Source: a virus
Lineage: Duplodnaviria > Caudoviricetes
DNA: 64,000 bases
Strand: one strand, 5' to 3'
Virus record (IMG/VR): IMGVR_UViG_3300002220_000406
Location: 869-64,868 of that record
Shown: piece by piece, positions 28,057 through 47,798 of the stretch
Layout: each line of letters starts with the position of its first letter
How positions within the stretch are numbered: position 1 is the first letter of the stretch
Notes under the pieces: model-generated
What the model was told of the DNA's origin: nothing
Databases searched by the model: none
What the model saw: only the letters and a program-made list of their open reading frames with translations
Made by a program: the position numbers and the translations under genes

Positions 28057-28249
28057 CACCTTGAAAGCGGAGTACCGCAAAGGGGCTATGAGAATGGTTT
28101 ATGTCGGCCCTCGGCCATCACTGATGGGGGAAGAGGGTTATTCTTGGCGATCAACCTTGTATGGTCGCCTTCTTTTTTGGCCTATGACCCGGCTTTTCTC
28201 AGACGAAAACATTTACCTGGTTGAGCCCGATTCGCTCGAACATTTATGA
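28019..28249 (+). CDS. hypothetical protein
   Basis: ORF bridging its neighbours. Confidence 0.5.
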   Translation: MNKTEQKSPLLINTLKAEYRKGAMRMVYVGPRPSLMGEEGYSWRSTLYGRLLFWPMTRLFSDENIYLVEPDSLEHL

Positions 28250-29247
28250 AAAAGACACGCCCAAGAAGGCTCGCGGAGGAGGTTCGCGAGAAAGTCATTC
28301 TCCTGCATCAGCAGGGCATGCTGCAGAAGGATATAGCAGTAGAGGTCGGGATTGCGCCCTCGAGCGTCTGTAGAGTATTGGCCGCCGCAAACCCTCACAT
28401 CGAGGCTCTGATATCCAAAGATTTTGAGATCGTGCCTAGATCAGCGCCATCTCCGGCAATATCATTGCCACCAATGCCAAAGCTCTCCAATCGCACCGAG
28501 AGGTGGTTAATACTGCCCGACATGCAGATCCCTTACCACGATGAGCGGTCTATCAAGGCCGTTCTTTCGTATGCCCGTACCGTCAAATGGGACGGGTGCA
28601 TCCAGCTTGGAGACTTTATGGATTGGGATTGGATCAGCAAGTGGACGAAGGACAACCAGAGAAAGGTTGAGGGCACTCGCTTCCTGAGCGAATACGCCAC
28701 GGCTAACGCCGTTTTGACGGAGATTCAGGAGGCAGTCAGGGCTCTTAACCCTAAATGCCAGATCACCATTCTCGAAGGCAACCATGACTGGCGCGTTGAG
28801 AATGTCGTGGACAAGACCCCGGCGCTAGAAGGTCTTATCGAGATGGAAAGAGGCCTGGAGCTGAAGGATCGCAAGATCACCTATTGGCGTTACTGGTCTC
28901 ACCGCAGACCCTACATCATAGGCAATGCTTGGTTCATCCACGGGGAGTATATCGGCAACAATCACGCCAAGAAGACGGCTGACAGCTTTCACAGGAACGT
29001 TTTCTACGGGCACACCCATGACAGAATGAGCGCGACCAAAACCACCGCTTTTGGTGACTCGGTGCAGTGCGAGTCAATGGGCACGCTAAGCCGTTTCGAT
29101 CTTGAGTATATGGGGCATAAGCCGTCTAACTGGATGCAATGCTTTGGGGAGTTCTTCTTCAGGCCCGACGGAAACTTCAATCACTACGTGACCAATGTCA
29201 TCGACCACGGGTTTACAGCAATAGACGGGCAGTATTACAAGGGGTAA
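28246..29247 (+). CDS. HTH-fused calcineurin-like metallophosphoesterase
   Basis: N-terminal HTH (QKDIAVEVGIAPSSVCRVL); motifs PDMQ, LGDFMD, EGNHD, IHG, GHTH. Confidence 0.88.
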   Translation: MKKTRPRRLAEEVREKVILLHQQGMLQKDIAVEVGIAPSSVCRVLAAANPHIEALISKDFEIVPRSAPSPAISLPPMPKLSNRTERWLILPDMQIPYHDERSIKAVLSYARTVKWDGCIQLGDFMDWDWISKWTKDNQRKVEGTRFLSEYATANAVLTEIQEAVRALNPKCQITILEGNHDWRVENVVDKTPALEGLIEMERGLELKDRKITYWRYWSHRRPYIIGNAWFIHGEYIGNNHAKKTADSFHRNVFYGHTHDRMSATKTTAFGDSVQCESMGTLSRFDLEYMGHKPSNWMQCFGEFFFRPDGNFNHYVTNVIDHGFTAIDGQYYKG

Positions 29248-29248
29248 C

Positions 29249-29542
29249 ATGGACGATCTGCAAGCGCTATTCGGGGAGGTAACGCAACTTCTTACCAAGG
29301 ATCGTCAGTCCAGCTACGGCGATCCGGGTGAGATGTGGGAAAGAAATGCTGTCTTGATGGGGCTTGTGGCTCAGAAAAGCCTCACCCCTGAGCAAGCGCT
29401 GCTTAACATTATAGCGGTCAAATTTGCCCGCCTTTGCCACAACCCCTCCCACCAAGACTCCATCAAGGACGCGATAGCGTACCTCGCGATCCTTTATCTC
29501 CGGACTAATCCGGAAGCTCCTTGTTCGCAAGAATCTCCATAA
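29249..29542 (+). CDS. DUF6378-like nucleotide-metabolism-associated protein
   Basis: DRQSSYGDP...VKFARL...H.DSIKDAIAYLA signature. Confidence 0.7.
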   Translation: MDDLQALFGEVTQLLTKDRQSSYGDPGEMWERNAVLMGLVAQKSLTPEQALLNIIAVKFARLCHNPSHQDSIKDAIAYLAILYLRTNPEAPCSQESP

Positions 29543-32500: not shown

Positions 32501-35500
32501 GCTTCTTGCCTGTCGTCGTGACGCGAGGCTTGCGAGGTATCTTGTCTCCGGTCTCCGTTCTGCCCTTGCTGCGACGATTGATGCGGTCCTGGGTCTTTTT
32601 GACCTCTTTTTCCAAGAACTCGATCTTGGTCGTCACGTCGGTGATTTGTTTAGCCTCAAACGGCGTCAGCTCGGCGTTTTCGTTACCGGTAAAGCGACGC
32701 TTCATTCTGGTGGCTACCACCAAGGCCTGCTGTGAAGGCAGTATACTCAAGACCTTGGCCATATTGACCGCTCGTCCAGTTTGTATCTGAGCCGCTATAA
32801 TTTCCTGGGACAGTTCAACTAACGCTGCTATCGTCGCTTCGTATTCGGCCGTCTTGCCTTGAGATTTGTAGCTTTGGGCCCTGGCGGACAGTGTGCGCTG
32901 CTCGTGGTACAGAGCCGCCATGACAACTGCCAAGTCGCCGGTCTGCCATCTGACCCTCGAGATCAGATCTCCAATGGATGTGGATTTGCGCAGTGCCAGA
33001 CCCTTTCTGTCGGTCTCTGACATGCCCTCCACATCATACGTGATTATTCCTGTTTCGAGGACTCGCTCGGCGTATTTAGGAGTTTCTCTTCGTGGCTCCG
33101 GAGCACCCTCTTCACCGCGTTCTTGTCCCCCTTCTTCAGTTTCTTGTACGCCTCCAGGAGGTCCGGCAGGTGTTTCCGGTACCGCTCCTTCATCTCTTCC
33201 TGTCTGGTAGACATTTTTGAATCTCGCATCTATAAACTCCTCTATATCGTTTAGTACTTCTTCGCCATTCTTTGCCGTAAAGGCCTCAAGATCGGCCACA
33301 TACAATGCCTGAGCCTGTTCGAGCGTGAGCCCAAGCGCTGCAAAATTGCCCGTAGACGCTTCGACGAATGCTTCCTCCCAGACCTCGGCTTTCTCGGATA
33401 TTGTAAGATCTTCCCATGCCCTGCCCTGGTGAATGGCCATCAAGAAGTTCTTGTACGCCGTCTCGACCAGATTGACCCCATCACGCTCCGTGCCTAACAG
33501 CGCATTGAAGTCATCGTATCGCTCAATGATATTAGCACCTTCAGCGCTGAGATATCTGAATTTGTGCAGCGCCTCGTGCGGTACCTTGTCATCGAATAGA
33601 TAGACCAGCAATGTATCTCGGTCCAATCCACTTTCCATCACATCGCCGATGTTTTTGACCACATCCGCGACATCGTTCCGGCCTTTCTGTCTCAGCCCGG
33701 CTTCCGTTGCTCTGACGGCCTTCAGCAGCTTGCGTGTATTGCCTTTCTGGAAGAACATTCCGTCAAAGCCGGCGGTTCGTCCAAACACCTTCTGCGCTAC
33801 AGACTCGAGGAACACCGTGGCCTCGAGGTTGAGCTCGACGCCGTTGGCTGTCAGTTTGGCTGTGGCCTTTTTGAGGACTTCGGTGCTAAGAGGTTTGCGT
33901 CTTAGCTCCGCGATCTTCGCTTCCGCTTCCGCCTGCCTCGTTGCTCCGAGGGGCCTGTCGGACTTTCTTCTAGCGACCTTCCCATCGGCAGCGGACCTCT
34001 CAGCATTCTTGCCAATAACTCCGTCGCTCTCTGGTCTCCCGATTTTAGCGATGAGATCGTCAAGGGATTTGCGGTTGACTTGTTTGTTTTCATACCATGC
34101 TCTCCTAGTGTTTTCCGAGACTTTGAACCCTGCAGGCACAATGCCATTTTTGCGTTTCTGAATCTCAGAAAGAAAAGTTGTGAACTCCTTTGGGGTAAAC
34201 ACGAATTTACCGTTCTTAGAGTCGGTATACCGCAAAAACGGCTGCCCGTCAGGGGTCATGCCAAACTCTGCTCCGTAGCTGTAGGTGTCGTACTGACCCT
34301 CCTTTGCGGTGACCCCTTCGTACGGAGCCTTCTTGCCTGCCGCTTCTTTGTACAGACCCTCCAGGGTACCATGACCGGCTTCTTGACCGGATTCGACCAC
34401 CCACGTCTCCCAATGGAGTCGGCCCAGGCTAGCGACGTCTCCCCGGCCGAGGCCGTCGTAAATAGCCTGCAGCTTGCGTTCTATAGCTCTTTCAATAGCC
34501 TCGTAGGTGGCAAGTCCCCACAATCCACTGGTTATAGGCTCAATACTTGACCCGGTAGTCGTGTCGCGGCTTTCGCCGATCCTTTCGATGTCCACGCCCA
34601 GCTCAGCAGCCTTATCGGCTTTAAGGGCTTCGACTGCGGCCTTAAAGTCCTTGTCACTCTCCCCTTCTTCCTGGTAAAGCTTGCCCAGAGGCGTTTTTGG
34701 GCCATCCTTTTCCTCGGACTTTAAGTACACCGTGGTGTGCTTGTCGCCGTCATACAAATTCTGCCCTTTAAATCGGCCGTCATCAAACAGGTTGCGAATC
34801 TGGACCCTGTCCAGCACAAGGACATCCGTGCGCCCCGTGACAAGCAGCATGAAGGATAAAACTTTATTGTCGAAACCGACGCCTTGAAACGTGCTATGAA
34901 ATAGACGACGTATTTGCGGACCGGTCAGTTTCTTGTCAGCGATCCAGTCGTGCAGGACCCTGATCCCGCTCTTGCCCGGCTCGGCTTCTTCGGACATTTT
35001 GACCAAAAAGTGCTCGCCAAAGCTGTTCAAGTTGTGCTTGGTGCCATTTGCAGGGAGGCCTTCCTCGAAGTTTAAACCCTTGACCCATGCTTCATATTTC
35101 TCAAAATCAAACTTGCCCTGCTCAGCCTGCTCAATCCATGGGGCTATTTTGTCAGCAACGAACAAGAACATGGATTCCTGGACATAAGGCGACACGCCTC
35201 TCGACAGCAGCCCCCACAGCGCAAGTTTGGCGGTTGTGGTGGGAGTCGCTACCCCACTCGTATAGAGCCGTCTAAAACGTTTTGCAGCCTCAAGCCCGGC
35301 ATTGGCGTCCTTGATCTGACCGTCCGAAAGCTTTGTCAATAGATTGCCAAAGGGCAATTTCTTGCGCAGCTGAGCGATAAGGTTGTATGGGGCGATAGGC
35401 ACGGTCCTGTTTTTAGTAAGATATGCCCAATAGCGTGCCCAGGCATCCTCACTTTTTTCAGGATCAGAGTTAACGTCTAACGCCTCGTCTATCAGGTCTA

Positions 35501-38500
35501 AGTTTTTCGGTACATTTGGAAGGATGGCGTTTTTAGACAAAGCAGCCCCTTTCCTTCCTTCTCTGATGTCGGAGTCTTCCGGAGCCTCCTGAGTAAGCCC
35601 TGGCAGCAGCGCTGGGCCCTTGATTGTTTTTGGCGCTATAGACGTTGCGCCTAGCGGCCTGTCTTCCTCGCCAGCACCTCTCTCCTGTCCCACAGGCACA
35701 CTTGGCGCTTTAAAGCCTCCCGGCAGCAGTTCGCCTTGGTCTTGAAGGTTGCGTGCATCTGGCGCTTTAAATTCGTATTTTGTCGCGTCCTTCATTCTCC
35801 TTCCGGTTTGTCTTGAGATTGGAAGTGAACGACGGTCGGCCGTCATGTCTTCCCGCGCCGATGCGTCTTGTGGCAGCACGGGCTCCTGGCCGTATATCAC
35901 GTAGCTGGATATGGGGGTGGGGGTGTATTCACCGCTTGCAGCCTCGGGGAAGAACTCTTCAAGAGCAGAACTCCCAGGGATAACAAATATCGTGCCCGAT
36001 TTCTGGGCCCTCTTCTTGCCTTCCACAAAAATCGGAGCAATGACATTGGCGTAGTCTTCGTCACTGGTAGAGATACACCCGTAAGTTCCAAAATTATCTT
36101 CAGGGGTAGCTGTCTCTAGAGCTCGACTCCGCTCTGCTGCCGCCGACGACCAATTGCGGTGTATCCCTGCCGCAAATGCGGGGCCTTGCATGCTAAAGTA
36201 CAACCACGTCTCGTTGTTCGGCCTGTCCTCTGGGATCAGGTCGAATTTGCCCGCTTGTGTGGCGCGGTCTATCTTGGGGTCAAAGTCTTCATAGGCCTTG
36301 ATGTCCTTGTATCGGGTCTCGTCGATCCTGTCGTAGTCCTTAGACAGTCCTGTGATCACCGGCCTGGCACTTAAAAGCTCACCCGTAGCAGACAAGATGT
36401 ACATGATGCCATTTTTCTTGTCCACAAAAGCAGCGGGTTTGTTTTCATGAGCGTTCGTGGTCATTGCCCAGTCCACGACTAAGGCGGTTTCCAGCGAGGG
36501 TTTTAATTCTTTAAATTGCTCCGAAACTTTCGCGTAGGTTGTGGTAATCTGCGTTGCAGTTTGAGTGGCAGCTGTAGGCAGCTGCTTAGTGACCGCAACC
36601 GACGGCAGCACCGCGTGCAATATCATGGCCGTCGCAAGCACCGCTGTCGCCAGTTTGGCGATAATTTTACGCAGTTTTACTTTGACGCCCTTGGCGCCCT
36701 TCTGAGCGAATCTGGTAAGATCTTCGCGGACCTTGGCCATAAAGCCTTGGCTACCGCGCTCCTCGCCATATACCTCTTCAAGGGTCTCTATCTCGCTCTC
36801 TTCAAGCGTGTCGAGAGCGTCTTCTACTATACCGTCATTGACTTCTTGTTGGGTGTCGGGCTGTTGCCCTTCGGCCGGAGCGAGTTCGCTAAGGCCCCTT
36901 ACCAGCACGTTTTCCAAAGCAAAACCAATAAAGTTAAGGTCGCTGCCAACGGCCGCGTTTTTCGCGGTTGGCTTGCCGCTTCGGGCGAAGACCATACCTT
37001 CCGGCGCCAGCAACGTCTTATTATCCTCGCTCAGGCGTATACCTGTGGCTTCGGATACCTTAGCCCACCATTCCAAGACTTCGGCCCTTTTCAGGCCTCT
37101 TCTGATTTTGGCAAACTCTTCCTGGCTGATCGGGCTCGTTGGATATTCGCTTTCTGCTGTTCCGCCATCTTCTGCCGGAGCAGTGCCTTGGTTCTCCTGA
37201 TTATCCTGGGGTCCAAACTCTTTGCCAAAAAGTCCTTGCTGTTTGTCGTTTCCGTTTTCTTCATTAAATTCTATTGCTCCTTGGAGTATTGAGGCCGCAC
37301 CTCGGTTTTCCGCGTCGCTGAACATGTTCATCTGCTTGGGAGATCCCATCTCATCGACGGTTCTGAGGTAGTTCTGCAGTATGGCGCTAAGCGCTTTGGC
37401 GGAGTTCCTCTTGCTTTCCAACATTTCCAGGATCATCACCTGGATTGGCGTCAGGTCTCCGCCGAACAGGTTCCCCTGCTGCAGGAACTCGCTGACAGGC
37501 ATGCCCTCGGCCCTGAGATCGGCGTATTTGACGGCCATTGCGGTAAGGTCGGCGCTGATGTCCAGCCCTTCAAACCTATTGCCGTTCGCAACATCGGCCT
37601 TTAACTGCGCAAACGCTGCCGCATTGAGCAGCATCGCCGATGTGATTCTCTTGATATTGCTGTCTTCGCTCTCAAATACCCTTTCAAGAAGATCTGCGCC
37701 CTCCTGGGTATCTGCGTAAGCTGCGGCGAAAATAGCCGCTCTCATAGCTCTGAAACCGTCCTGCGACATCTGGCCAGAAGCTGTTCTGTAAGCCGAAGCC
37801 CTCTCCTCTCCAACTGCCAGCAGGAAGTCCCTGATGAACGCCTCATTAGCAGTTGTCCCAAGGTCGCCGTTTTCGCTTACAACCAGCTTGGACAAGATCG
37901 CCGGGGTAAGTTTTTTAGCATCCTCGATCGCCTGCTCGGCGGTGGACATGGCCCTTTGCTGCGGTGCATTGGCCTGCCTCGCAAACTCGACAAGGTCTAT
38001 CGCGCCGGGGTCTGATATGACTCCGACGTAGATGGGGGAGTTGATGCCTTCAGTATCCTGGCCTGCCGCTTCACCTTTTTCCTGGGCAAAGCCTTCGTAC
38101 TCTTCGTTTGTGTCTTGGTTGTAACGCTGCCTAATTGCGCCGACTCTATGATTGCCCGCAATGACCGCGTACTTGGTCTGACCATTGACTTTCACAGGCA
38201 CAACGATCGGTCTTCCGTTCCCGGCGAATGTCTCATCTCCGAGCTTGTCGGTGTCGAGGTCCGCCGCAATGGAGGTCACAAAAGCTGCGGAAGATTTACG
38301 AGAGGTGTCTCTGGGCTGAAGCTCTGAGGGATAACCTTCCTGCTCAGACGTGATTATATCGTCAGCGGAGATGACTTTCTGCTCGACCGGCACCTTGATG
38401 TCGCCGGCGTAGACCGTCTGAGTCTTGTTAGTTGGGGTCTCTGTGACAGTCTCGGTTTTAGGAGCAGCTTTCTGTCGCGGCGTTTGCTTGCCTTCAGACT

Positions 38501-41500
38501 CGTCAGCTGCGTCGCGAAGGCCTTCAGCATCCCGTGTAACGTTAGGCAGGTCACCAGTGTTGTTGTCGTCCAGAACCTGTGCAAGGTAACGCGCTTGTTC
38601 CGGGGTTATGGACTCGCCTGGCACAATGCCCTGCTCTTCCATATAGTCCTCAGCATATTCGTCGAGTATCAGCTCAGAACCGCGACTAAGCTCAGGGATG
38701 ATCGGCTTGCCTTTGCTTGCTGCCTGTGGTTCCTGCTTTCTTCCCACGGGAGACCCGCCCGGTTCTCGCTGTATCCAATCAGCAGTCGCACCGAGGCGTT
38801 CATGGGCCGACTCGATCTGCATCGTAATCGGACCAAAACCATTGCGCTCGTAAAAAGCCAGGAGTTCATCTTGCGACAGACCGAACTGCTTCTTGTTCTT
38901 ACGCCCCGAGTCGGACTGCGCTACTGGGTCCCCGATCAGCGTAATCCCATGCTTGTCCGCGTATTCGGTCAGCTTCTTGAGAGCTGCGCTGCCTTGCCCT
39001 TTACCCACGGCTTCAGGGCTTACCCTGAAATCGTCGATGATCATCACCCCGTCTTCTCCGGGAGTCATGTAGATAAAAGCCTCTCCGATCTTAATCGCGA
39101 CAGCAGAGGACGAATGAGGGGTAACGGCATTGTCCTTTGCTATATCTTGCAGGAAGGGACTGCCATCCACTGTTTTATCAAAACGACTTTCAAAACGACT
39201 TTTCTCGGGAGCCTGTTCAGCTTCCGCTGATTCCACTTCCTGCCCTGTCAGGGCGCGGAGCTTGGCAAGAATTCTGTTAAGAGCACTTACATCAAGATCG
39301 CTGAGGAACTCTTGAATCTCTTCGTCGTTCAGGTAATCCTCAATATTCTCAATAAGGCTGTCCGCCTCTTCACGAACTAAGGGGGTTCCGTCCAAAAGGG
39401 CTTCGACTCCAGTCTCCCAGTCCTGAAAAGACTCGCGCATGACCCCGCGCTCTGTCTCGCTGAGTTCCACGGAACCGATCTCGGCAGCTTTGCGTGCCGC
39501 CACCTTTCTTGTTTCGACGTCCGCTTCAAACTCTTTTCGCTTCGCGCCAGCATCCTTTGCGGTCTTGCTGGTTGCCGCCAGGTCCACAACGCCTACTTTT
39601 TGTCCTAGTTCTCGTTTTGACCAACTGTCTACTTCCTTCGGGAGCTTAACGTCACCGAGCTTCACGGCGACCCTGCCTGTGCGCTTGTCTCTGAAAACCT
39701 TTTCAACTGTGCCCGAAACCGTGACGGACTTGGTGCCGGTTACGCTATTTGCAGACGTACCCACATACAGTTTGGCGCCTTTTTCGACTAACTTCCACAA
39801 ACTTTGGTTTTCGTCGCTGGTCTCAAAGACTCCCTGCTCAATCTTCTCGGTGGCAGAGCCTTGGCCGAACATCCCGCCCTTGCGCATGACCATCTCCCTA
39901 CTGAAACCAGAAGCCGGATCGAACAGTTCTATTTGAACGGAAGAGCTCCATTGACCTTCAGCCTCAACCTTAAACTCCGTGGTGTAGCCTGTAACCAGCT
40001 CACCGCCATAAGTGCTACCGACGGGAGCCATGGCCTCTAGTTTCTCTTTGTGTTGCTCCAGGTCCGCCTTGGCCTTTTCTATTGCAGCCTCCAATTCCTT
40101 GCGAGACTTGAAGACGGGCATTCGGGTCAGCCCCCCTTGAGTCCCCTGCACTAACGCCCCGAAATGTTCGCCTTTTCCGTCGACTGCCGCGATAAAGAAA
40201 TCGCGCTGGGTGAGAGGCGAGTGAGCCACGACCTTGCCTTCTTTGATCGTGCCGTCAGGCATTACCACCGCCATTGTCGATCCAACTGGATGCTCTCGCA
40301 CCAAGGCCTCTCGCGTTTTCACGTTACGCTGCGAGGCGTCTTCGGTAGGATCGAAGTGCGGAACCAGTTTATGCGCAGGGCCTTGATTGATGCGTGTGGG
40401 TGTGTGTGGCCATCCTCTGGTCATCACTATCGCTTCTACAACGCCATTTTTACCCATCGTGTAGCCCACGACCATCTGCATCCCAAAAGCGGCATTAGAA
40501 TAGCCGCGGATAATCGTCATCGAACCTATCGGCATCGCCTCCTCAGCCTCGGCGATACTCTTGTAGGGAGTCGAACGAGGAGCCGACGGCAATGGGCCGT
40601 CAACCTGCCTGTCAGTCACTGTCCATCCGCGGTCTGGAGTAATTACCGCGACATTGCCTTCAGGGTCTCTTACGACCCAGACAGTTCTGTCAACTTCTTT
40701 CTCCTTGTAGGTATCCACGATCGCCCATTCCACGCCTGCGCCAGGCCCCTCTTTAGGGGTCACAATACGTCCGACTTTTGGCGCGCCCTTAGTTGGGGCT
40801 GCTTTGGTTTTGGGATATTTGCGCGTGCGAGAAGTCGGAGGGAAGACAGGCTGAGCACCGGCATCGCCGTCGTCATCCTCGTCGATATCCTCGTCTTCAT
40901 CAAGCTCTTCGTCGACTTGCTCAGCAACTTCTTCGTCGACCTCTTCATCAATATCCTCCTCGACAGCCTCTCCCTGACCAACATCTTCGCCGATCGCCTC
41001 ACGATAAATTTCCTTGATCGGGTCAAAAAGCTGTCCCTTACTACCCCATTGCCCGTATTCCGCATCCCTTTTAGGCAGGAAATTAAGGATTGCGCGAATC
41101 TCGTCGGCAGTTAGCGCGTCGTCCGGTGCCAGACCTCGCGCCTCAAGATATCGCGATGCCTGACCGACCCGAAGAATCAACGCTCGCTCGTCGGAAGTCA
41201 GATCGACCGGAAAGAGTTTTTCGCCTGAGATCTCCTTATCTCGCTTCTCTCGCCGAAGCTCCAGGATGAGCGGCATAGCCTTTTCCCTGTCAGCAAACAG
41301 CGCGTCCCATTCGGCACGGGCCTTTTTGCCGTGCTTTTCTTCTATCTTGTCACCATAGAAGTCTAAGCCGTTGTCCCAATGAACCGACTCCTGTACAAAC
41401 GAGTTGCCATCCCAGTTGACGTAGCTGAGATATTTATTAATGGCGTCAAACGCGGGGGACTTGCTCCATGCTTCCAGCAAGGCTTCTGCGACTTCAAGGT

Positions 41501-44500
41501 CGGTGACACCCTCCATTGCGCCTGCAAGACCTTTATCTGCCACAGCCGCTTTTGCTTTTTTCGCGATTTCTTGTTTTCTGGCAGACTCTTTTTTGCCTTC
41601 AGCCTCTGCCGCTTTCTGTGCGGGCTTTGTCTTAGCTTCATTCCACGCCTTTTCGAGCAGACTTTCGGGGAAGTATCCGAACTCATTGATATAATCTCCA
41701 GCAAAAATGACATCTCGGGCCTCTACCTCAAACGAGTAGACCTGACTGCCTTCTTCCTGAGAGTTAATCTCAGCGTAGGTCTTTGAGAACGTCACCCAAT
41801 CGCCTATATTGAGCTGCTTGGACGGACCTGCCCTGTAAATCGTAACCTTGGCTCTGGGATTATCCCTGATAGCCTGCAGCACTGCCCAGCTCTCCTGTTC
41901 CGCTTGATCTTTCTTCAGGTTCGATGCAATTGATAGCTCAGGCTTTTCGTAAACATCGTCAGGGATAGCTCCGCCTTCAAGAAGGTCGTGCGCAGGAGGC
42001 ATCCCTTCGTAGGTGGGCCTGTGAGACATCCCGTATTCGGGAGCCTCCCCAAACACTGCCGCGCGAAACTCCTCATAAGTCTCAAATTCTTTAGCCTTCT
42101 CAACCAGATCACTCTGCGTGTCTTGGACTTTAGTGCCCTGAGCCACCACCACTTCTCCAACTTGGATCACCTCGCCGTTTTTTGTAATGGTAGGTTTCTT
42201 GACCTTTTTAATTATAAATTGGCCTTCAAACAGATTGGCATCCCGCACGAACTCCGGCGCCACTTCCATGCCTTCAACCCAAGGCATACCTATGGCATGA
42301 GTCTGCACACGCTCGTAGCCCATCTGCTTGAGCGACTCTTCAAGAGCGTCAAGCGCCTTACGCATCTCTGTTCCGAATGCGATCCAGGCTGACTGACTCA
42401 TCTCGGCTTTAGGAGCTAACCCTGCGGCCAGCAAACCTTCTAGCTTTGAGATCGCGTCAAGAGCCCGTATGGGGCGATCCGTTTCGATTAGGATATTGAC
42501 CTGCGTCCTGATTTGCTTCCCGTGGTTGTTTGACGGAATACCTTTAGCAGCCTTGTCAAGCATTACAACGCCGTCGTCATAATCCTGCTGACCCTCTTCG
42601 GCCTGTTCCTCTCCGGTAAGGATCTCTACCTCTTCGTCTGGGGTGATCTCTTGTTCAGTCTGAACGTCAGTGGATTGAGTTTCTGACTGCTCCGTGTCGC
42701 CGGTTGTTTCTGGCGCAGGAGCCGTCTCCGATATACGGGCAGCTTCAATCGCCTCGGTTGTTATTTGTCCTACTTCTTTTACGACATACCCAGACTCCGT
42801 TTGTTCTATGACAGGTGGCTTAGTAATAAGGATCGTGCCATCGGTGATCGCTGCGCTGACCTGGGCAGGCTGTGCGGCTACGCTGAACAGGCGCGGAAGA
42901 ATGGCCTCCGGAGAATGCTTGATCTTATTGCCAACGATTTTCTGTTCAAACATGGGCACCGCGGTAAAGGTGCCGTCAGGTCTGCGGACGAGCCTGAATA
43001 AAGACTCGCCCTCTTTCATCTCTGATTCTAAAAACGCTATCGTGCCGTCGGCATTGACCCCGGGGAAATACCCCACAGTCTCGCCTTCTGTGCCCTGGTT
43101 GGCAGGAGCTTGAGTGGTCGTCTCGACCTGTTGTTCCGTAGGAGCCTGGTCAGCACCTTTCAGTCCAAAGTTTGTGCCTTCCTTTTCGTGCCGAGTCGCG
43201 ACCAAGTCGAGAAGGTCCGTGAAAGGTAGACCCGCCATCGAATCGCGGCCTTTAGAGTCCTTGCCAGTCATCCGCCGCCTCACACCCATCGCGATGTAGT
43301 CCTTGCCGTCAAGCGAGATGGCAGAAAAGAGCGGGGAGCTCCCCCCTAGGGCGCTTAGGACTTGCTCGGCTGTCCAACCATTACCCTGGCCGGTTTCGAT
43401 CAGCTGATCTATCAGGAGGCCAAATTCACGCAACAGATTGATTACGTCGTCAGGGGTCAGTCCTTCAGCACTCTCCCACCCGTAAGCGCGTAGCGCGTCA
43501 TTTCTAAGCGCATTGACGAATTTGGTGCCTGCGATCGGCAGCAGCATCGCGGTGATTTCGGCGTCGGCAAGCAGATTGAATAGTTTTCTCCTGGCATTTT
43601 CCAGCGTTCCCGCAAATGCAGGGTCATTGCTATGCTGCCGGGCAAATTCGAGGTACTCGGCAATGAGGTCTTCGACCTCCTCAACGGTAACCCTCCCCGA
43701 TTTCTTTCGTTCCACTGCCTCGTCAATTCGGGCAATAATGTCAGCGCCTTGCTGCTCCTCGCCGGTCAAGATGTCGACTTCTTCGTCTTGCGCTGAGTCT
43801 GTTTGTTCCGAAGGTACATATGCCGTGGTAACCGCGGATCTAGGCACAACGGATTCGGTATTGCTACCGTCGTCCGTAACAACGCGAACATTTTCGCCTT
43901 GGTCCTCCACAATAAGCGCTGGGCCTATGCCATCAACGGTAACTGGCGTGCCAGGCTCGTAAAAAGCTCCATCCACCAAGGGGCCTGGGGCGTTTTGAGC
44001 ACTGTTTGCGCCGTCGTTCATGCCGTCTTGAATGGCAGCGGCTCGCTCTTCTGAGGCAAAAGAATCTGAGACCCTGCCCCAGTCCGCATCCTCAAGGTAA
44101 AGGGCGTTCTGGCCATTGATGACAGTGCCTGAGTCTTCGGCGACGGTGTAGTAAGGTTTGCCGTCCTGGTCTTCACCAACGCCTGTTACGGTCAATTGCG
44201 AGCCGTCAGCCGTGCTGGTTACAACCTGACCCACCGCAGTGCCCTTTAGAAGATCCCAAGCCCTCTTTCTGGCTTTCTTGTTTGGCGCGTTGAGAAAACT
44301 GTCCTGGGCTATTCCTGCGGGTGGACGGTCGTATTTGTCCACCAATGCCTTTTGAGCCTCTAATGCGTTCAGCTCAGCGCTCAAAGCATCGAATGCCTGT
44401 TCCTGGCCATCGGCCGGGGTTCTGGTTTCTTTTCCGTTGCGGTCCTGCGTTACATTCGAGATAAGATCGAGTTCGCCCCTGACCTGCTCCAATCGCTCAT

Positions 44501-47500
44501 TTAAAAGGGTAATGCCTTCGCCGGTGTATTCAGCGTCCCTCTCTGCTCGCGCCCTTTCAAGCGTGAGCGAGGGTTGAACCGATTCGACTGCGTTGGGGGT
44601 AAAGACTCGAACATTGCCCTTTCCGTCCACGTCGGCTCGGATCTTAACAATGATATTGCCGTCCTTGGTAAATCCTTGAACCACTCCCAAGCCTTTGGGC
44701 GTGGCTACATAACCACCCTCTTTGATTTCAAAATCTTCTTCCGTGAGCGCTCCGACAGAGGCCTCTCCAGCCTCCATCTTGACCTTGGCCGCCCTGTTGG
44801 CAGAGGTCTGATCTGCAAATGTAAGAGCGGCATTGGCCTGGTCAAACAGTGCCGCAGCCTCGCTGATCAATCCTTCCCTTTCAGACGCAGGCGCGCTGTT
44901 GACCTTGCGCATGATGCCCATGGCCTTGGAAAACTTGTTCCAAATATTTTCGTTGCCCCATCGCTTTGCGGCTTTAAAATGCTCGATGTCTTCCTCGCTG
45001 AGCTCGATAGGCTTGCCATCCTCTCCAAGAACTTGAGGCGTGATGTCTGTCCGGGCAATCCTCTGGAACTCTCTCTGAAGATTGGCTACGTGCGTGCGGC
45101 TTCCATACACATCTCCGCCCACACCCACACCGACTCCCAAACCTCCGCCCAGCAATCCGCCCGCCATGGCGTGTGGAAGCGCGTCAACAGCTTCGTTGGG
45201 CACGTTTGCAAAGGCAAACATGAGCGCTGACCAGCCCTCTCGAAGTTTTCCGGTTTCCGGATCGACCTCGGTCAAGGCCTTCATAGCCCCGCCTTGCAGA
45301 GCGCTCTGGAACGTTTCCTGCGCAGTCTCTTCTAAAAACTCTTTTCCAAAATAATACGGACTGGCCTTTGCGACCTTCGCCAACATACTCTGGCTACCGT
45401 TACGGATCGCGTCGCGAGCCAGTGTTTTAATAGTGCCCTGAGAGACCTCGCCCAGAGCCAACTTTGTTATGGTCTTAGGTATAATGCGGCCAATACCAAA
45501 CATTTCGGTTGCGCCAAGAGGCACGGAAAGGCCGGTAGCCCAATTCAATGCTGACTGGTGGTTGTAACCCGCACCTCGCAATGAGGTGTAAACGCCGGGC
45601 AGCATCATGCTGGCGCCGGTGGCCCATGACGTGCCCATTGCAACCTTCGTTGCGGTCTTTGCTGCAAGGCCTCCAGCCCTTGCGGCAAGCGTCGCGCCGA
45701 CTTGAGGCCCCATAAACGAAATCAGGTTGCCCGCTATAGCTGCGTAAGTAAATTCGTCGGAGTATCCGTGGTATCGTTTATAGTAATCACCGCTGCGGAT
45801 CCAATCGCCCGCAGTCTCGCCCTGCTCATCGGTGAGCCAATACGAGGCGGTCAAGTACTTGCCCTTGTCCGTATCGCCTACATAATTAATGGCTCTTCCT
45901 AGCGCGGAGTTAATGGATGCCAGATCTGTCAGCATCAGGGCACCCGTGCCAATGTCGGTTATTGATGCCCCGATTTCAGTACCGGTTACTGCTAAAAATC
46001 TGCCGACCTTGCCAAAGACACTTGCATCGTCCCATTCCTTCTGAGCCTCAGCCTGTTTTGCTCTAAACTTTTCGATAGAGCCAAACTGCTGGATCTTTCC
46101 GCCGACGTAGGCATCAAAGGCGGCGTTCTCGCCATTGAGCAGCTGTTCGTCTGTCCATTTGTCGGGATTGGTCTCGATCGGATTCCACGTCTGCTTGATC
46201 TTGTCGGTCCAGTGAGTGTTGTCGTCTCTCCAGGGCTGTATAGCCTGCTGAATCGACTGTCGCGTCAAGCCGTTGGCATAGATCTGAGTAAGTTTTTCGT
46301 TGCGCTCTTTTGCGTCGATAAACTTTGATTGTTCCCGGGCAATGACCTCTGCGGCTTGGTCTTGGACCGCCTTATCCATACTCCTAAACGGAGCAAGGGC
46401 CTCCATTGGATTAGCGCTGAAACCCCGTCGTTTTACTGGGTTGCCGTTTTCGTTGGTGGTAATCCATCCTGGTGCTGCGCCAGGCACATCGCCACCAGTC
46501 TTGAGCTGATTCAGATACAGGCCTTTTTGGGTGTTGATCCTGTCGAGATTGATCTGCCTTGTCTGCGCAAGAGCTTTGGCGTTGGGACCGTTCAGCCATT
46601 CCGCTATCGAGCTTTGACTGAGACCAATGTCCCCAAGCTCGTTGTCGTCCAGTTTGGTAAGGTCTGCCCCGTCGGCGTAAAGCTTTTCCAGCACCGGCTC
46701 GAAGCGGATGCTTTTGGCAGTTTTGGCCGCTTTAAACCGCGCCAGGCCTTTAGGGTCAATGGTGATGGTGCCGTCCGGCTTAAGGCCTGTGCCCAACATG
46801 AGATTCAGCTGAAAGTCTGAGGCGTTGACACCCTGCGCATTTAGCTCTTTCCTCATACGCGCGATCATCTTCTTGTGATCTGCGTCGGTGAGTTTGTCGC
46901 CCTGGTTGAACGATTTTTTGCCTATAGCCTCAAGTAAATTAAAGCTAATTGGCTTTAAACTGCCCTCATAAAGCTCCGGTCTTTCTGCCTGTTGAGCCCT
47001 AAACTCAACTTCCGGCAAGAGCGAGTTGTCGTTCTTAAGGACAAACTTTTGATTGTTGAAGGAGTAAATGCCTTTCGTGCCTTGAGGCCCGTCAGATATC
47101 CTGTTGTAGGCGTTGCCCTTTTTGTCCTTGATTTGATTTGGATTGCGAAACTCTTTTTCGTTGACATAGCCTTCGCCCTGCTTTAGGTAGAACTGATTAT
47201 CAGAGCCCTTGTATCTGTTCTTGCCTACAGACTTCAGCCGGACACCGTTGTTGAGAGGAATCTCGTTTGGGTCTGAGGTGCCGGGAGGCGAAACACTTTT
47301 TGACGCGCTGGCGGTCGTGCCTGACAGTATCTCGCTAATCGACAGAGTGGGGGTCTGCGGCTTTTTGCCTATAATGCCTTCGGTGCCTGGTGGGACCTGA
47401 GGCGCGCGTGTGGGAATGCTTTCTTTGCCCAATGAACGGCCTAAAAGGTCTGTGCGTTCAAGGCGGTTTGGGTCGTAATCGACACGTAAGGATGAAAAAG

Positions 47501-47795
47501 GCGAGGGCGGTGGCTGAGACAGAGTCCGCTGTCCAGTCTGGGGAGGTGGCAAAGGAGCTGGGCTGGTAGCCGGCAATGTAGGTCCTCGGAACGTCGGTTG
47601 TGGCCTGGCAGGTCCTGTAGGCACGTCACCGTTTAAATAAGCACTAGCCTCAGAGTCGGGGCCCGTAAAGTCGTCAGAGGGCACGATAAGGCCCAAGGAC
47701 TCCATCTCTGCCCTTCGGCGTCTGCGCAGCTCAAGTTCTTCCTCCTCTGTGTTCAGAGGTATGCCCAAGATGTTCGACAGTATCGGATCGTACAT
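29505..47795 (-). CDS. giant (6,096 aa) polyvalent internal virion / ejection protein
   Basis: Uninterrupted 18.3-kb ORF, last in the ejection-protein position. Domains by motif: GrpE-like, ART-like, GNAT, ParB/DdrB-like, L,D-transpeptidase, Ogg-like HhH, HExxH. Confidence 0.9.
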   Translation of the reverse strand: MYDPILSNILGIPLNTEEEELELRRRRRAEMESLGLIVPSDDFTGPDSEASAYLNGDVPTGPARPQPTFRGPTLPATSPAPLPPPQTGQRTLSQPPPSPFSSLRVDYDPNRLERTDLLGRSLGKESIPTRAPQVPPGTEGIIGKKPQTPTLSISEILSGTTASASKSVSPPGTSDPNEIPLNNGVRLKSVGKNRYKGSDNQFYLKQGEGYVNEKEFRNPNQIKDKKGNAYNRISDGPQGTKGIYSFNNQKFVLKNDNSLLPEVEFRAQQAERPELYEGSLKPISFNLLEAIGKKSFNQGDKLTDADHKKMIARMRKELNAQGVNASDFQLNLMLGTGLKPDGTITIDPKGLARFKAAKTAKSIRFEPVLEKLYADGADLTKLDDNELGDIGLSQSSIAEWLNGPNAKALAQTRQINLDRINTQKGLYLNQLKTGGDVPGAAPGWITTNENGNPVKRRGFSANPMEALAPFRSMDKAVQDQAAEVIAREQSKFIDAKERNEKLTQIYANGLTRQSIQQAIQPWRDDNTHWTDKIKQTWNPIETNPDKWTDEQLLNGENAAFDAYVGGKIQQFGSIEKFRAKQAEAQKEWDDASVFGKVGRFLAVTGTEIGASITDIGTGALMLTDLASINSALGRAINYVGDTDKGKYLTASYWLTDEQGETAGDWIRSGDYYKRYHGYSDEFTYAAIAGNLISFMGPQVGATLAARAGGLAAKTATKVAMGTSWATGASMMLPGVYTSLRGAGYNHQSALNWATGLSVPLGATEMFGIGRIIPKTITKLALGEVSQGTIKTLARDAIRNGSQSMLAKVAKASPYYFGKEFLEETAQETFQSALQGGAMKALTEVDPETGKLREGWSALMFAFANVPNEAVDALPHAMAGGLLGGGLGVGVGVGGDVYGSRTHVANLQREFQRIARTDITPQVLGEDGKPIELSEEDIEHFKAAKRWGNENIWNKFSKAMGIMRKVNSAPASEREGLISEAAALFDQANAALTFADQTSANRAAKVKMEAGEASVGALTEEDFEIKEGGYVATPKGLGVVQGFTKDGNIIVKIRADVDGKGNVRVFTPNAVESVQPSLTLERARAERDAEYTGEGITLLNERLEQVRGELDLISNVTQDRNGKETRTPADGQEQAFDALSAELNALEAQKALVDKYDRPPAGIAQDSFLNAPNKKARKRAWDLLKGTAVGQVVTSTADGSQLTVTGVGEDQDGKPYYTVAEDSGTVINGQNALYLEDADWGRVSDSFASEERAAAIQDGMNDGANSAQNAPGPLVDGAFYEPGTPVTVDGIGPALIVEDQGENVRVVTDDGSNTESVVPRSAVTTAYVPSEQTDSAQDEEVDILTGEEQQGADIIARIDEAVERKKSGRVTVEEVEDLIAEYLEFARQHSNDPAFAGTLENARRKLFNLLADAEITAMLLPIAGTKFVNALRNDALRAYGWESAEGLTPDDVINLLREFGLLIDQLIETGQGNGWTAEQVLSALGGSSPLFSAISLDGKDYIAMGVRRRMTGKDSKGRDSMAGLPFTDLLDLVATRHEKEGTNFGLKGADQAPTEQQVETTTQAPANQGTEGETVGYFPGVNADGTIAFLESEMKEGESLFRLVRRPDGTFTAVPMFEQKIVGNKIKHSPEAILPRLFSVAAQPAQVSAAITDGTILITKPPVIEQTESGYVVKEVGQITTEAIEAARISETAPAPETTGDTEQSETQSTDVQTEQEITPDEEVEILTGEEQAEEGQQDYDDGVVMLDKAAKGIPSNNHGKQIRTQVNILIETDRPIRALDAISKLEGLLAAGLAPKAEMSQSAWIAFGTEMRKALDALEESLKQMGYERVQTHAIGMPWVEGMEVAPEFVRDANLFEGQFIIKKVKKPTITKNGEVIQVGEVVVAQGTKVQDTQSDLVEKAKEFETYEEFRAAVFGEAPEYGMSHRPTYEGMPPAHDLLEGGAIPDDVYEKPELSIASNLKKDQAEQESWAVLQAIRDNPRAKVTIYRAGPSKQLNIGDWVTFSKTYAEINSQEEGSQVYSFEVEARDVIFAGDYINEFGYFPESLLEKAWNEAKTKPAQKAAEAEGKKESARKQEIAKKAKAAVADKGLAGAMEGVTDLEVAEALLEAWSKSPAFDAINKYLSYVNWDGNSFVQESVHWDNGLDFYGDKIEEKHGKKARAEWDALFADREKAMPLILELRREKRDKEISGEKLFPVDLTSDERALILRVGQASRYLEARGLAPDDALTADEIRAILNFLPKRDAEYGQWGSKGQLFDPIKEIYREAIGEDVGQGEAVEEDIDEEVDEEVAEQVDEELDEDEDIDEDDDGDAGAQPVFPPTSRTRKYPKTKAAPTKGAPKVGRIVTPKEGPGAGVEWAIVDTYKEKEVDRTVWVVRDPEGNVAVITPDRGWTVTDRQVDGPLPSAPRSTPYKSIAEAEEAMPIGSMTIIRGYSNAAFGMQMVVGYTMGKNGVVEAIVMTRGWPHTPTRINQGPAHKLVPHFDPTEDASQRNVKTREALVREHPVGSTMAVVMPDGTIKEGKVVAHSPLTQRDFFIAAVDGKGEHFGALVQGTQGGLTRMPVFKSRKELEAAIEKAKADLEQHKEKLEAMAPVGSTYGGELVTGYTTEFKVEAEGQWSSSVQIELFDPASGFSREMVMRKGGMFGQGSATEKIEQGVFETSDENQSLWKLVEKGAKLYVGTSANSVTGTKSVTVSGTVEKVFRDKRTGRVAVKLGDVKLPKEVDSWSKRELGQKVGVVDLAATSKTAKDAGAKRKEFEADVETRKVAARKAAEIGSVELSETERGVMRESFQDWETGVEALLDGTPLVREEADSLIENIEDYLNDEEIQEFLSDLDVSALNRILAKLRALTGQEVESAEAEQAPEKSRFESRFDKTVDGSPFLQDIAKDNAVTPHSSSAVAIKIGEAFIYMTPGEDGVMIIDDFRVSPEAVGKGQGSAALKKLTEYADKHGITLIGDPVAQSDSGRKNKKQFGLSQDELLAFYERNGFGPITMQIESAHERLGATADWIQREPGGSPVGRKQEPQAASKGKPIIPELSRGSELILDEYAEDYMEEQGIVPGESITPEQARYLAQVLDDNNTGDLPNVTRDAEGLRDAADESEGKQTPRQKAAPKTETVTETPTNKTQTVYAGDIKVPVEQKVISADDIITSEQEGYPSELQPRDTSRKSSAAFVTSIAADLDTDKLGDETFAGNGRPIVVPVKVNGQTKYAVIAGNHRVGAIRQRYNQDTNEEYEGFAQEKGEAAGQDTEGINSPIYVGVISDPGAIDLVEFARQANAPQQRAMSTAEQAIEDAKKLTPAILSKLVVSENGDLGTTANEAFIRDFLLAVGEERASAYRTASGQMSQDGFRAMRAAIFAAAYADTQEGADLLERVFESEDSNIKRITSAMLLNAAAFAQLKADVANGNRFEGLDISADLTAMAVKYADLRAEGMPVSEFLQQGNLFGGDLTPIQVMILEMLESKRNSAKALSAILQNYLRTVDEMGSPKQMNMFSDAENRGAASILQGAIEFNEENGNDKQQGLFGKEFGPQDNQENQGTAPAEDGGTAESEYPTSPISQEEFAKIRRGLKRAEVLEWWAKVSEATGIRLSEDNKTLLAPEGMVFARSGKPTAKNAAVGSDLNFIGFALENVLVRGLSELAPAEGQQPDTQQEVNDGIVEDALDTLEESEIETLEEVYGEERGSQGFMAKVREDLTRFAQKGAKGVKVKLRKIIAKLATAVLATAMILHAVLPSVAVTKQLPTAATQTATQITTTYAKVSEQFKELKPSLETALVVDWAMTTNAHENKPAAFVDKKNGIMYILSATGELLSARPVITGLSKDYDRIDETRYKDIKAYEDFDPKIDRATQAGKFDLIPEDRPNNETWLYFSMQGPAFAAGIHRNWSSAAAERSRALETATPEDNFGTYGCISTSDEDYANVIAPIFVEGKKRAQKSGTIFVIPGSSALEEFFPEAASGEYTPTPISSYVIYGQEPVLPQDASAREDMTADRRSLPISRQTGRRMKDATKYEFKAPDARNLQDQGELLPGGFKAPSVPVGQERGAGEEDRPLGATSIAPKTIKGPALLPGLTQEAPEDSDIREGRKGAALSKNAILPNVPKNLDLIDEALDVNSDPEKSEDAWARYWAYLTKNRTVPIAPYNLIAQLRKKLPFGNLLTKLSDGQIKDANAGLEAAKRFRRLYTSGVATPTTTAKLALWGLLSRGVSPYVQESMFLFVADKIAPWIEQAEQGKFDFEKYEAWVKGLNFEEGLPANGTKHNLNSFGEHFLVKMSEEAEPGKSGIRVLHDWIADKKLTGPQIRRLFHSTFQGVGFDNKVLSFMLLVTGRTDVLVLDRVQIRNLFDDGRFKGQNLYDGDKHTTVYLKSEEKDGPKTPLGKLYQEEGESDKDFKAAVEALKADKAAELGVDIERIGESRDTTTGSSIEPITSGLWGLATYEAIERAIERKLQAIYDGLGRGDVASLGRLHWETWVVESGQEAGHGTLEGLYKEAAGKKAPYEGVTAKEGQYDTYSYGAEFGMTPDGQPFLRYTDSKNGKFVFTPKEFTTFLSEIQKRKNGIVPAGFKVSENTRRAWYENKQVNRKSLDDLIAKIGRPESDGVIGKNAERSAADGKVARRKSDRPLGATRQAEAEAKIAELRRKPLSTEVLKKATAKLTANGVELNLEATVFLESVAQKVFGRTAGFDGMFFQKGNTRKLLKAVRATEAGLRQKGRNDVADVVKNIGDVMESGLDRDTLLVYLFDDKVPHEALHKFRYLSAEGANIIERYDDFNALLGTERDGVNLVETAYKNFLMAIHQGRAWEDLTISEKAEVWEEAFVEASTGNFAALGLTLEQAQALYVADLEAFTAKNGEEVLNDIEEFIDARFKNVYQTGRDEGAVPETPAGPPGGVQETEEGGQERGEEGAPEPRRETPKYAERVLETGIITYDVEGMSETDRKGLALRKSTSIGDLISRVRWQTGDLAVVMAALYHEQRTLSARAQSYKSQGKTAEYEATIAALVELSQEIIAAQIQTGRAVNMAKVLSILPSQQALVVATRMKRRFTGNENAELTPFEAKQITDVTTKIEFLEKEVKKTQDRINRRSKGRTETGDKIPRKPRVTTTGKKPVKKTSLTIRQRLDRNLAQGFADSIQEVRDFLSNPSQDSPLGALANDAYVPPARRQAFGQVAAKLMQDGFDQDPDYDADKFAAQIAEMFGPSVEQFIDDIVNLGFETLAEAREQAVRENLIEQFADEADPETAADEEIQRRRDERQRRTAGRATLKKLASQATRRTGSSAAIDELNADATASDIAKVLAVAPDQDLANLAERVADEYGLPEVEAARKIIEAKRLLDVVKRNELIEKFKKEGDPAPEVSADIQMRTKKEQSKEKAKRNRELKRIVEEHDRKVEQLDEIAEKTDDIVVQYIANKLLEAMRPGGEAVTITTLLKDIDKQFGIGLEAARNKAREAKLVVDEIVQDRALAKAEAQGKNKEDLEKLKADKIALRREQTRLNQMLRSARKPTTLIGKFNAFLRGTFVFNWITQLFNFIQGFSMVGIQGFTDVVATAIRTIGGKYGMFADEVSPNVNLKTAWLAYGYLMANNRQVAEGIVAEFPEEWHRLELGIIADIPIEETESEGKKGLMAKAHKYADKLPKVTEFLAKISFAREQEIQMRTAIVMATLDQFARMKGTTLKEAVDEQRTAELFTEEEVREAVTRALRATFALPVDDKAGQWAKALYDQIDKYVPVFLNPVVYLRFTYTTTKIIANGFLAGALDLERLGGKGYKSTSLAQGVAAWSSVLLAAAMLAEFEGDDEEWYTLYVNGKDEAPIDVRRWYPMSVSFFIAHNIRLAIAGKPIMGLDEAIQAFASIEYDYYARSAGVEAVKAAYDAAFNRAEKPDADEALWKASAKMMGSVMGGMLRVLTPAKRLVSTFYEEEAKLRNYKDSAASEFIGEIAKSVPGLGVLYQAPPLIDPVTLKPVTEQKPYMRFFGFNYIHQMFTRPKPTTAEALAQQMFPANFTTPLKDQDKVEAARVRSEIKQALRRGDINEARAEVLVEYHVSKGTLSEQQGKRLKSDLKLTYLEEIIKYRVSLKDKDHVKKIKELMRKASPRERALIMEILANKELPD

Positions 47796-47798
47796 TGT

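Follow-up and report, generated by a model that had tools for sequence, protein, structure and literature searches.

The Giant Gene and Its Genome

The 64,000-nucleotide stretch of tailed-phage DNA analysed here (the window) comprises bases 869-64868 of a 64,868-bp contig, IMG/VR record IMGVR_UViG_3300002220_000406, which is classed as linear. It contains, on the minus strand, a single open reading frame (ORF) that begins with ATG and encodes a protein of 6,096 amino acids (aa) with a mass of 668.2 kDa and a pI of 5.0. The gene is real and under purifying selection. With a probability of about 0.6, it would be a genuine late gene of a complete tailed phage of ~64.9 kb and would encode a very large polyvalent protein, for which delivery with the virion is proposed.

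29505..47795, minus strand: whole giant gene; 6,096 aa, 668 kDa; identical across independent assemblies

Over positions 29300-47900, Logan contigs of two runs from different studies, a hydrocarbon metagenome (2013) and an organism-labelled run (2020), contain neither a difference nor a gap; the source sample of the window assembly may be among these two runs. In a freshwater run from a third study (2015), four pieces without differences cover nearly the whole gene, leaving a gap at ~40066-40268. RNA runs are absent from the list of public runs that contain the gene. A related strain from a 2022 metagenome run displays 40 listed differences, 30 of them synonymous and 27 at codon position 3, and from this synonymous bias it follows that the reading frame is under purifying selection. 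The initial annotation, made from the sequence alone, had described one uninterrupted ORF of 6,096 aa and ~660 kDa, and this description is borne out by the independent assemblies. A chimeric assembly or read-through across several genes would have to be reconciled with contigs of two studies that span the gene unchanged and a third that spans nearly all of it, with a variant strain showing synonymous bias in the same frame, and with an 18.3-kb open frame that is impossible by chance; it is practically ruled out, the sole oddity in its favour being the CheckV completeness estimate of 71% for the contig.

The 2022 strain is present as short pieces (window 31242-46023). Eight of its ten amino acid changes fall in aa 2555-2618, which is part of a beta-rich region without assigned domain.

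Two full Logan contigs, both of 64,898 bp, carry the stretch at different offsets (3208 versus 40942). Their length would correspond to one 64,868-bp circle plus a 30-base assembler overlap, linearised at two points. In addition, the ORFs truncated at both contig ends (window 1-334 and 63531-64000) share strand and phase; joined, they form one frame of ~298 aa. Because of the differing offsets and the in-phase terminal ORFs, the 64,868 bp probably represent the complete genome, as a circle or a permuted molecule, the CheckV estimate notwithstanding. With the genome taken as complete, the share of the gene is 18,291/64,868, or 28.2%, compared with the 29% given initially.

Domain Organization of the Giant Protein

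Four enzyme-type domains and a single strong transmembrane-type helix are located between aa 2903 and aa 4606.

33978..35519, minus strand: Ogg2-like HhH-GPD glycosylase/lyase-type module (aa 4093-4606; core aa 4147-4475)
35946..36482, minus strand: YkuD-like candidate domain (aa 3772-3950; H3879, C3907)
36609..36674, minus strand: strong transmembrane-type helix, the only one in the protein (aa 3708-3729; Kyte-Doolittle 19-aa window, peak 1.97)
37176..38444, minus strand: DdrB-like ParB domain with helical extension (aa 3118-3540)
38835..39089, minus strand: GNAT acetyltransferase domain (aa 2903-2987)

The ParB/DdrB call of the initial annotation is borne out by the Pfam family PF18763 (ddrB-ParB), which matches aa 3134-3259 at 1e-21 (77.7 bits versus a cut-off of 27.6). 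The PHROG family phrog_5143 covers aa 3118-3521 (1.3e-51), and ~390 residues of DdrB of phage P1 (aa 66-453) align with 28% identity (E 3e-31). The GNAT call is confirmed at modest strength: PF00583 matches aa 2908-2953 above the Pfam cut-off (5.9e-5; 23.8 versus 20.7 bits), though only with profile positions 50-95 of 116; further matches of this segment are PF13508 (3.7e-4) and phrog_10691.

The class signature domain of polyvalent proteins (Iyer et al. 2017), PF18763 ddrB-ParB, is therefore present, and at least two disparate enzyme domains are found in one chain, namely GNAT and DdrB-ParB by Pfam, the Ogg2-like module by structure, and the YkuD-like domain as a candidate. The assignment to the polyvalent class made at the outset is supported by the DdrB-ParB and GNAT domains and by the 28% identity to P1 DdrB; judged by its sequence, the giant protein is shown to be a member of this known class, of which it is an unusually large variant.

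The Ogg2-Like Module

The AlphaFold2 (AF2) model of the module, calculated from a 63-sequence alignment, has a predicted local distance difference test score (pLDDT) of 91.3 and a predicted template modelling score of 0.88. In a Foldseek search, Ogg2 enzymes are ranked first, with a probability of 0.99 and a template modelling score of 0.71 on the target. In VIA comparisons, the Ogg2 enzymes overall reach Z 14.5-15.5 at a root mean square deviation (rmsd) of 3.0-3.4 Å over 201-208 aligned residues; MjOgg (3knt) scores Z 15.5 (rmsd 3.0 Å, 204 of 207 residues aligned), Tm1821 15.2-15.3, and SsOgg 14.5. Beyond Ogg2, there follow hOGG1 (10.6), EndoIII-3 (10.1-10.3), ROS1 (9.0-9.4), and MagIII (8.5-9.4), with DUF2419/Qng1 (8.6-9.0) and MutY (7.7) at lower ranks. 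In the unbiased VIA search of 48,161 chains, ranks 1-23 are all occupied by HhH-GPD enzymes, and unrelated chains score at most 5.5.

The module contains the motif G-V-G-x-D-N-K...V-L-D-R, in which K4311 lies within the HhH (helix-hairpin-helix) element and D4329 follows 18 residues on, a spacing which we take to be that of the catalytic pair of EndoIII and Ogg2. Both residues, together with 16 family-specific ones (18 in total), are invariant in 63 and in 88 copies of the module. Motif position and the assumed spacing would make K4311 and D4329 the equivalents of the Ogg2 catalytic pair. The Ogg-like glycosylase call thus proved right by structure (pLDDT 91; Z 15.2-15.5; invariant HhH Lys and Asp): on the predicted model, an Ogg2-type HhH-GPD fold with a Lys/Asp pair of catalytic type is confirmed, and glycosylase/lyase activity is predicted. 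Pfam and NCBIfam (E≤0.1-1) as well as PHROGs yielded no match to the module, and neither did the PDB at E≤10, searched by phmmer and with the 63-sequence profile.

Distribution of the Ogg2-Like Module

A HMMER search with aa 3701-4900 retrieved 544 proteins, of which 277 scored below 1e-30. The best-matching stretch is within aa ~3990-4650 in each of the 150 matches listed, and re-scoring against the whole protein delimits the module to aa 4093-4606. Its identity among relatives is 35-49%. Among the 150 listed, the carrier proteins range from 348 to 5,043 aa; where checked, they are unnamed, and five of six carriers scanned with Pfam are without match. The module is present in at least 354 IMG/VR loci and in at least 277 clusters at 50% identity. 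Complete carrier ORFs in the best 80 of the IMG/VR loci (n = 57) encode 752-3,540 aa (median 1,871), and the giant gene is the largest carrier among those retrieved. Further copies are present at five loci in GTDB genomes, all on contigs of metagenome-assembled genomes (MAGs), and in two unnamed proteins of 'uncultured Caudovirales phage' in BFVD, while a tblastn search of 50,697 GenBank phage genomes found no Ogg2-like module. The titles of runs and MAGs suggest that the carrier phages are mostly aquatic.

The genomic context was read for two carriers. The gene of a 1,374-aa carrier (L004) is located four genes downstream of a P22-type Phage_stabilise gene; that of a 782-aa carrier (L006) lies upstream of the gene of a DUF7483 protein, two genes away, after which come Phage_tail_APC (tail-assembly-chaperone type), a holin, and a lysozyme. 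Three large carriers that were scanned also hold LPD22, LPD23, LPD37, LPD38, or ART-PolyVal, and a fourth holds RadC and LPD38. A hidden Markov model built from four ART-PolyVal copies has matches in many further module carriers, which, at the sequence level, suggests a recurrent pairing of an ART with the glycosylase-like module, a pairing lacking in the giant-gene phage. Other parts of the giant protein are rare in carriers, the ParB domain occurring in one and the module of aa 1893-2060 (see below) in two. The Ogg2-like module is thus a shuffled building block of polyvalent proteins.

ART-PolyVal was seen in many carriers (L013-L092, P0003-P0152), often some hundreds of residues upstream of the module.

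In the open-access literature, nothing relevant on HhH-GPD, Ogg, or YkuD within ejection or polyvalent proteins was found. As no description was met with in the literature searched, the Ogg2-like family appears to be new.

The YkuD-Like Candidate Domain

Between the transmembrane-type helix and the Ogg2-like module lies the segment that had initially been called an L,D-transpeptidase. C3907, the sole cysteine in 6,096 aa, is part of the sequence G-T-Y-G-C-I-S, 28 residues after H3879, a gap which we take to be longer than that in classical YkuD enzymes. The other proteins of the giant-gene phage contain 0-1.85% cysteine. Only one relative of the segment was found (P0172; 29% identity); it exhibits the same order of motifs (VDKK..Y, T.AGKF, HR, GCI) and a hydrophobic segment at its start. 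An IMG/VR pattern scan with the YkuD segment retrieved no relatives. Among Atlas clusters, 'L,D-transpeptidase family protein' comes closest (0.94; a feature search, taken as a lead only), and the closest of those with a Pfam family carry YkuD or YkuD_2. The call therefore stands in part, the motif order, the single cysteine, and the Atlas lead speaking for it and the missing Pfam match against it; as read from the sequence, aa 3772-3950 plausibly represent a YkuD-type domain, which is treated as a candidate. YkuD domains are rare but on record among phage lytic proteins, with 10 PhaLP entries (PMC8310338).

Linkers and Terminal Regions

Elsewhere in the chain are linkers, a Gly/Ala-rich region, and the two terminal regions.

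43752-43787, minus strand: linker motif copy 1, DEEVDILTGEEQ (aa 1337-1348)
42603-42638, minus strand: linker motif copy 2, DEEVEILTGEEQ (aa 1720-1731)
40818..41030, minus strand: longest acidic linker (aa 2256-2326)
47196..47795, minus strand: proline-rich, low-complexity N-terminus (aa 1-200; Pro 19%, then 11% per 100-aa block)
45096..45995, minus strand: Gly/Ala-rich hydrophobic region (aa 601-900; Gly 14-16%, few charged residues; no family match)
29508..33038, minus strand: charged repeat-like region (aa 4990-5380), then hydrophobic-rich C-terminal region (aa 4920-6096 in all)

Acidic linkers between the domains, among them a duplicated DEEV(D/E)ILTGEEQ linker near 43770 and 42625, had been noted in the initial annotation. 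The duplicate was found as described, beginning at aa 1337 and aa 1720, and four acidic runs were located at aa 1705-1749, 2256-2326, 2806-2838, and 3645-3683. With eight more stretches that are nearly devoid of hydrophobic residues, these runs split the chain into at least 12 blocks. At the DNA level, the two copies of the motif are the same at 29 of 36 bases; of the seven changes, six are synonymous, and no relatedness extends into the flanks. Hence, it is the linker peptide that is conserved, and a recent DNA duplication is not indicated.

This organization would also be that of a polyprotein precursor, translated once and cut into about a dozen proteins by a phage protease or by itself, of which only some would enter the virion and others would act in the producer cell. 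The at least 12 acidic or hydrophobic-free linkers, the 12-aa peptide kept twice at the protein and not the DNA level, and the occurrence of modules of the aa 1893-2060 type as free-standing 145-aa forms in other phages argue for such a precursor, and cleavage would remove the topology problem posed by the transmembrane helix (see below). There is also a precedent in P1 DdrB, which undergoes processing ahead of packaging and is present in the phage head in processed form (Iyer et al. 2017, PMC5512222). Against a precursor stand the lack of a confirmed protease domain, the presence of the linker motif in only two places, and the fact that the virion RNA polymerase (vRNAP) of phage N4 is packaged unprocessed (Iyer et al. 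2017, PMC5512222), so that large size alone does not imply cleavage. A polyprotein is regarded as a possibility to be reckoned with, albeit an unlikely one.

As to the Gly/Ala-rich region (aa 601-900), a membrane-active role may be envisaged, and the C-terminal region contains a moderately hydrophobic segment at aa 5759-5777. Self-comparison of the protein revealed no internal repeats except for the 12-aa motif and the weak charged repeat of aa 4990-5380. A search for relatives of similar length with aa 1-5000 yielded nothing but a piece of the gene itself, 100% identical, and the IMG/VR pattern scan with aa 2001-6096 yielded no relatives. The PDB sequence search with both protein halves and the tblastn search of the 50,697 GenBank phages with the C-terminal 1,196 aa gave no match, and NCBIfam returned only noise for all ten segments of the protein.

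Further Domain Assignments

Three other assignments of the initial annotation, an ADP-ribosyltransferase (ART), a GrpE-like domain, and a zincin, are not supported.

41616..42119, minus strand: conserved module, first taken for an ART; PHROG 'ParB C-terminal domain' (aa 1893-2060; phrog_2579 8e-22)
33564..33578, minus strand: HEALH, the sole HExxH in the protein (aa 4740-4744; 0.035 expected by chance)

The module of aa 1893-2060 is conserved in 28 relatives with 35-62% identity and the invariant motifs YGMSHRP, YRA, GDW.T.S, and GD.INEFG; its AF2 model has a pLDDT of 80-96. Pfam contains no match to it. Its identification as ART-PolyVal (PF18760) was rejected, since hhalign against 21 copies gave a probability of 0.9%, hmmsearch gave nothing significant, and a Pfam match is missing. 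In relatives, the module adjoins an ART-PolyVal domain: one protein (P0189) carries it at aa 295-459 and ART-PolyVal separately at aa 136-267, and in a protein of MW202573 it is located upstream of ART-PolyVal. Faint hints of an ART fold come from Foldseek, where the Vis toxin is at rank 1 (E 0.3, probability 0.15) and KptA at rank 48, and from an Atlas cluster bearing PARP, at only 0.77 for this region; both VIA searches of a second model were swamped by the neighbouring N-terminal 4-helix bundle.

A free-standing 145-aa form of the module is encoded by Vibrio phage VH7D (L002:1501-1938), and in Vibrio schizo-T4 phages a protein of this type lies between regA and the DNA polymerase gene. Some of the mycobacteriophage records matching the module carry the annotation 'ParB C-terminal domain'.

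For the GrpE-like call, Pfam gave no match to GrpE (PF01025) at E≤0.1, and no relatives cover aa ~1780-1890. AF2 predicts a 4-helix bundle at aa 1741-1828 (pLDDT ~65), and aa 1829-1891, the supposed beta head, stay below a pLDDT of 50. The zincin call would have to rely on the one HExxH motif; around it, Pfam (aa 4561-4900, E≤1) returned nothing, nor did the C-terminal part of P1 DdrB prove similar, and the call is unconfirmed.

Operon Position and Neighbouring Genes

The giant gene is the last gene of a leftward operon of ~44 kb on the minus strand, which starts with the terminase gene TerL, proceeds to base 1, crosses the contig junction to the contig end, and continues to 29505. Its ATG is separated by 3 nt from the stop codon of the upstream gene, which encodes 854 aa. 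The ejection-protein position assigned initially is borne out by gene order in so far as it denotes the 3' end of the late operon.

6578-8464, minus strand: TerL (phrog_38, 1.7e-17); operon start
5598-6293, plus strand: stand-alone SLT lytic transglycosylase (PF01464, 2.7e-28); opposite strand, between TerL and the next late gene
19643-20521, minus strand: GH19-like protein (weak match)
28246-29247: metallophosphoesterase

With the separate SLT and GH19-like genes, the phage possesses wall enzymes besides the YkuD-like domain. The window also encodes an HTH_36 protein, a DnaB/AAA-like protein, and a Gp157 homologue. The interval from the giant gene's stop codon to the convergent gene contains no terminator-like site, and no tRNA genes were found. 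In the tblastn search of the 50,697 GenBank phages, TerL and a 456-aa neighbour had no match, and the sole match of a 320-aa neighbour was to a small hypothetical domain next to endolysins of Acinetobacter podophages. The neighbour genes of the window were not found alongside the Ogg2-like module in other carrier phages.

The 854-aa (47799-50363), 425-aa (4207-5484), and 320-aa (1801-2763) proteins contain no cysteine; replication and lysis proteins of the same phage contain 1-1.9%. A 178-aa protein (8929-9465, minus strand) matches a PHROG annotated as ferredoxin (phrog_3704, 1.5e-11).

Two further explanations turn on this context. The protein could be a non-virion late or host-takeover scaffold of repair and modification enzymes that would act in the producing cell and would never be injected. 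This would suit the unrecognisable surrounding virion genes, and glycosylase, GNAT, and ParB activities are also sensible during replication. It is nevertheless improbable in view of the location at the end of a TerL-led operon with translational coupling, the relatives in late operons near tail and lysis genes, the DdrB-ParB precedent in the P1 head, an extreme scarcity of cysteine that the large late proteins nearby also display, and the membrane-anchored, periplasmic-type domain. Alternatively, the longest gene of the structural operon, with hydrophobic Gly-rich stretches in its product, could encode the tape-measure or tail-core protein of a long-tailed phage with acquired enzyme domains; tape measures can carry lytic domains. 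Since a tape measure spans ~1.5 Å per residue, 6,096 aa would demand a tail of ~0.9 µm. There is, moreover, no match to a tape-measure, tube, or sheath family and no periodic internal repeat, most of the length is taken up by globular enzyme domains, and a P22-type gene stands in the context of one relative, all of which renders this explanation very improbable.

Proposed Route of Delivery and Its Implications

For the virion-delivered polyvalent protein, which is the reading preferred here, the steps of packaging, ejection, and processing, the topology, and all substrates are what we infer from the precedent of the P1 Dar system and from the polyvalent-protein model (Iyer et al. 2017, PMC5512222). 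The protein would be made together with the virion proteins, and a few copies would be packed into the capsid, from which they would exit through the tail alongside the DNA. Cleavage might occur at the acidic linkers, with DEEV(D/E)ILTGEEQ as a candidate cutting or docking site. In the periplasm, the membrane-anchored YkuD-like domain (transmembrane helix aa 3708-3729, Cys3907) would act on the peptide stems of peptidoglycan, and passage across the envelope may involve the Gly-rich and C-terminal hydrophobic regions. Cytoplasmic roles are envisaged for two further domains: DdrB-ParB would shield DNA or otherwise act on it, by analogy with the anti-restriction system Dar of P1, and GNAT would acetylate some target. 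Excision of a base and nicking of the DNA, via a lyase step involving a lysine Schiff base, would fall to the Ogg2-like module.

Several points weigh against this reading. An internal transmembrane helix, followed by a periplasmic-type domain and then by a DNA enzyme, would be topologically awkward unless the chain is cleaved. Among 20 neighbouring proteins, no portal, capsid, tail, or known ejection family was recognised with PHROGs and Pfam, and the label 'virion operon' is derived from TerL and gene order. The podovirus type and the likeness of the N- and C-terminal regions to DNA-translocation tube proteins, both named initially, are treated as putative. No relatives were found for the first 1,300 and the last 1,180 residues. 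The Foldseek E-value for Ogg2 is weak (0.26), and Pfam at E≤1, PF03734 and PF13645 included, gave no match to aa 3781-4000.

In a newly infected cell, polyvalent proteins are believed to act before any other phage molecule, and few have been studied at the bench. Here, 28% of a 65-kb genome is devoted to one chain, which raises the question of how 668 kDa would be packaged and would pass through the tail. With the Ogg2-like module, hundreds of giant proteins that are otherwise unrelated would share an enzyme family that is new and under strong constraint. That it marks a large unnamed family of virion-delivered DNA base-excision/lyase enzymes is put forward tentatively, as an idea with clearly less than even odds. 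If it were true, uncultured phages would inject a glycosylase together with their genome, by which oxidised or marked bases would be removed from the incoming phage DNA before its first transcription and replication; alternatively, a base specific to the host or to a competing element would be attacked. In the giant protein, this glycosylase would be coupled, in one 668-kDa chain, to a membrane-anchored cysteine peptidoglycan enzyme and to domains of anti-restriction type. A co-injected base-excision enzyme would then constitute a new kind of early phage function, be it repair of environmental damage to virion DNA or counter-defence, and the YkuD-like domain would be a wall-active candidate of a type not listed for the polyvalent class.

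Comparison with Known Systems

With polyvalent proteins, such as the 995-aa DdrB of P1, the giant protein shares the combination of many unrelated enzyme domains in one chain, probably also the location among late genes, and relatives sharing its modules carry LPD22/23/37/38, ART-PolyVal, and RadC. It is, however, ~6 times longer than P1 DdrB and also longer than the retrieved relatives, the longest of which measures 5,043 aa in the list of 150 and 3,540 aa in the set of 57 complete IMG/VR ORFs. In contrast to the class, it has no match to an LPD domain or to ART-PolyVal, and it possesses the Ogg2-like module and the YkuD-like domain; the words 'glycosylase' and 'transpeptidase' are absent from the description of the class (Iyer et al. 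2017, PMC5512222).

The whole ~207-residue fold of Ogg2 enzymes (MjOgg 3KNT/3FHF, Tm1821 3N0U, SsOgg 3FHG) superposes on the phage module. The module differs from these enzymes in being only ~15% identical, in an inserted beta/alpha subdomain of ~60 residues (model residues 292-352), in conserved N- and C-terminal extensions (~55 and ~120 aa, respectively), and in being always found embedded in large phage proteins. To YkuD and YkuD_2 domains (PF03734, PF13645), the candidate domain is related by its motif order, the His...Gly-Cys signature, and the N-terminal membrane anchor, but it lies inside a phage protein and lacks a Pfam match.

The internal virion proteins ejected by short-tailed phages, that is, T7 gp14-16, P22 gp7/gp20/gp16, and N4 vRNAP, are likewise large and encoded distally in the structural module, and T7 gp16 contains a peptidoglycan-active domain. 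Sequence or profile similarity to these proteins was not detected in the giant protein, and its candidate wall enzyme would be of the cysteine YkuD type instead of a lytic transglycosylase. Summarizing, the polyvalent class to which the giant protein belongs is known, whereas its size, the Ogg2-like family, and the membrane-anchored YkuD-like candidate domain would be new.

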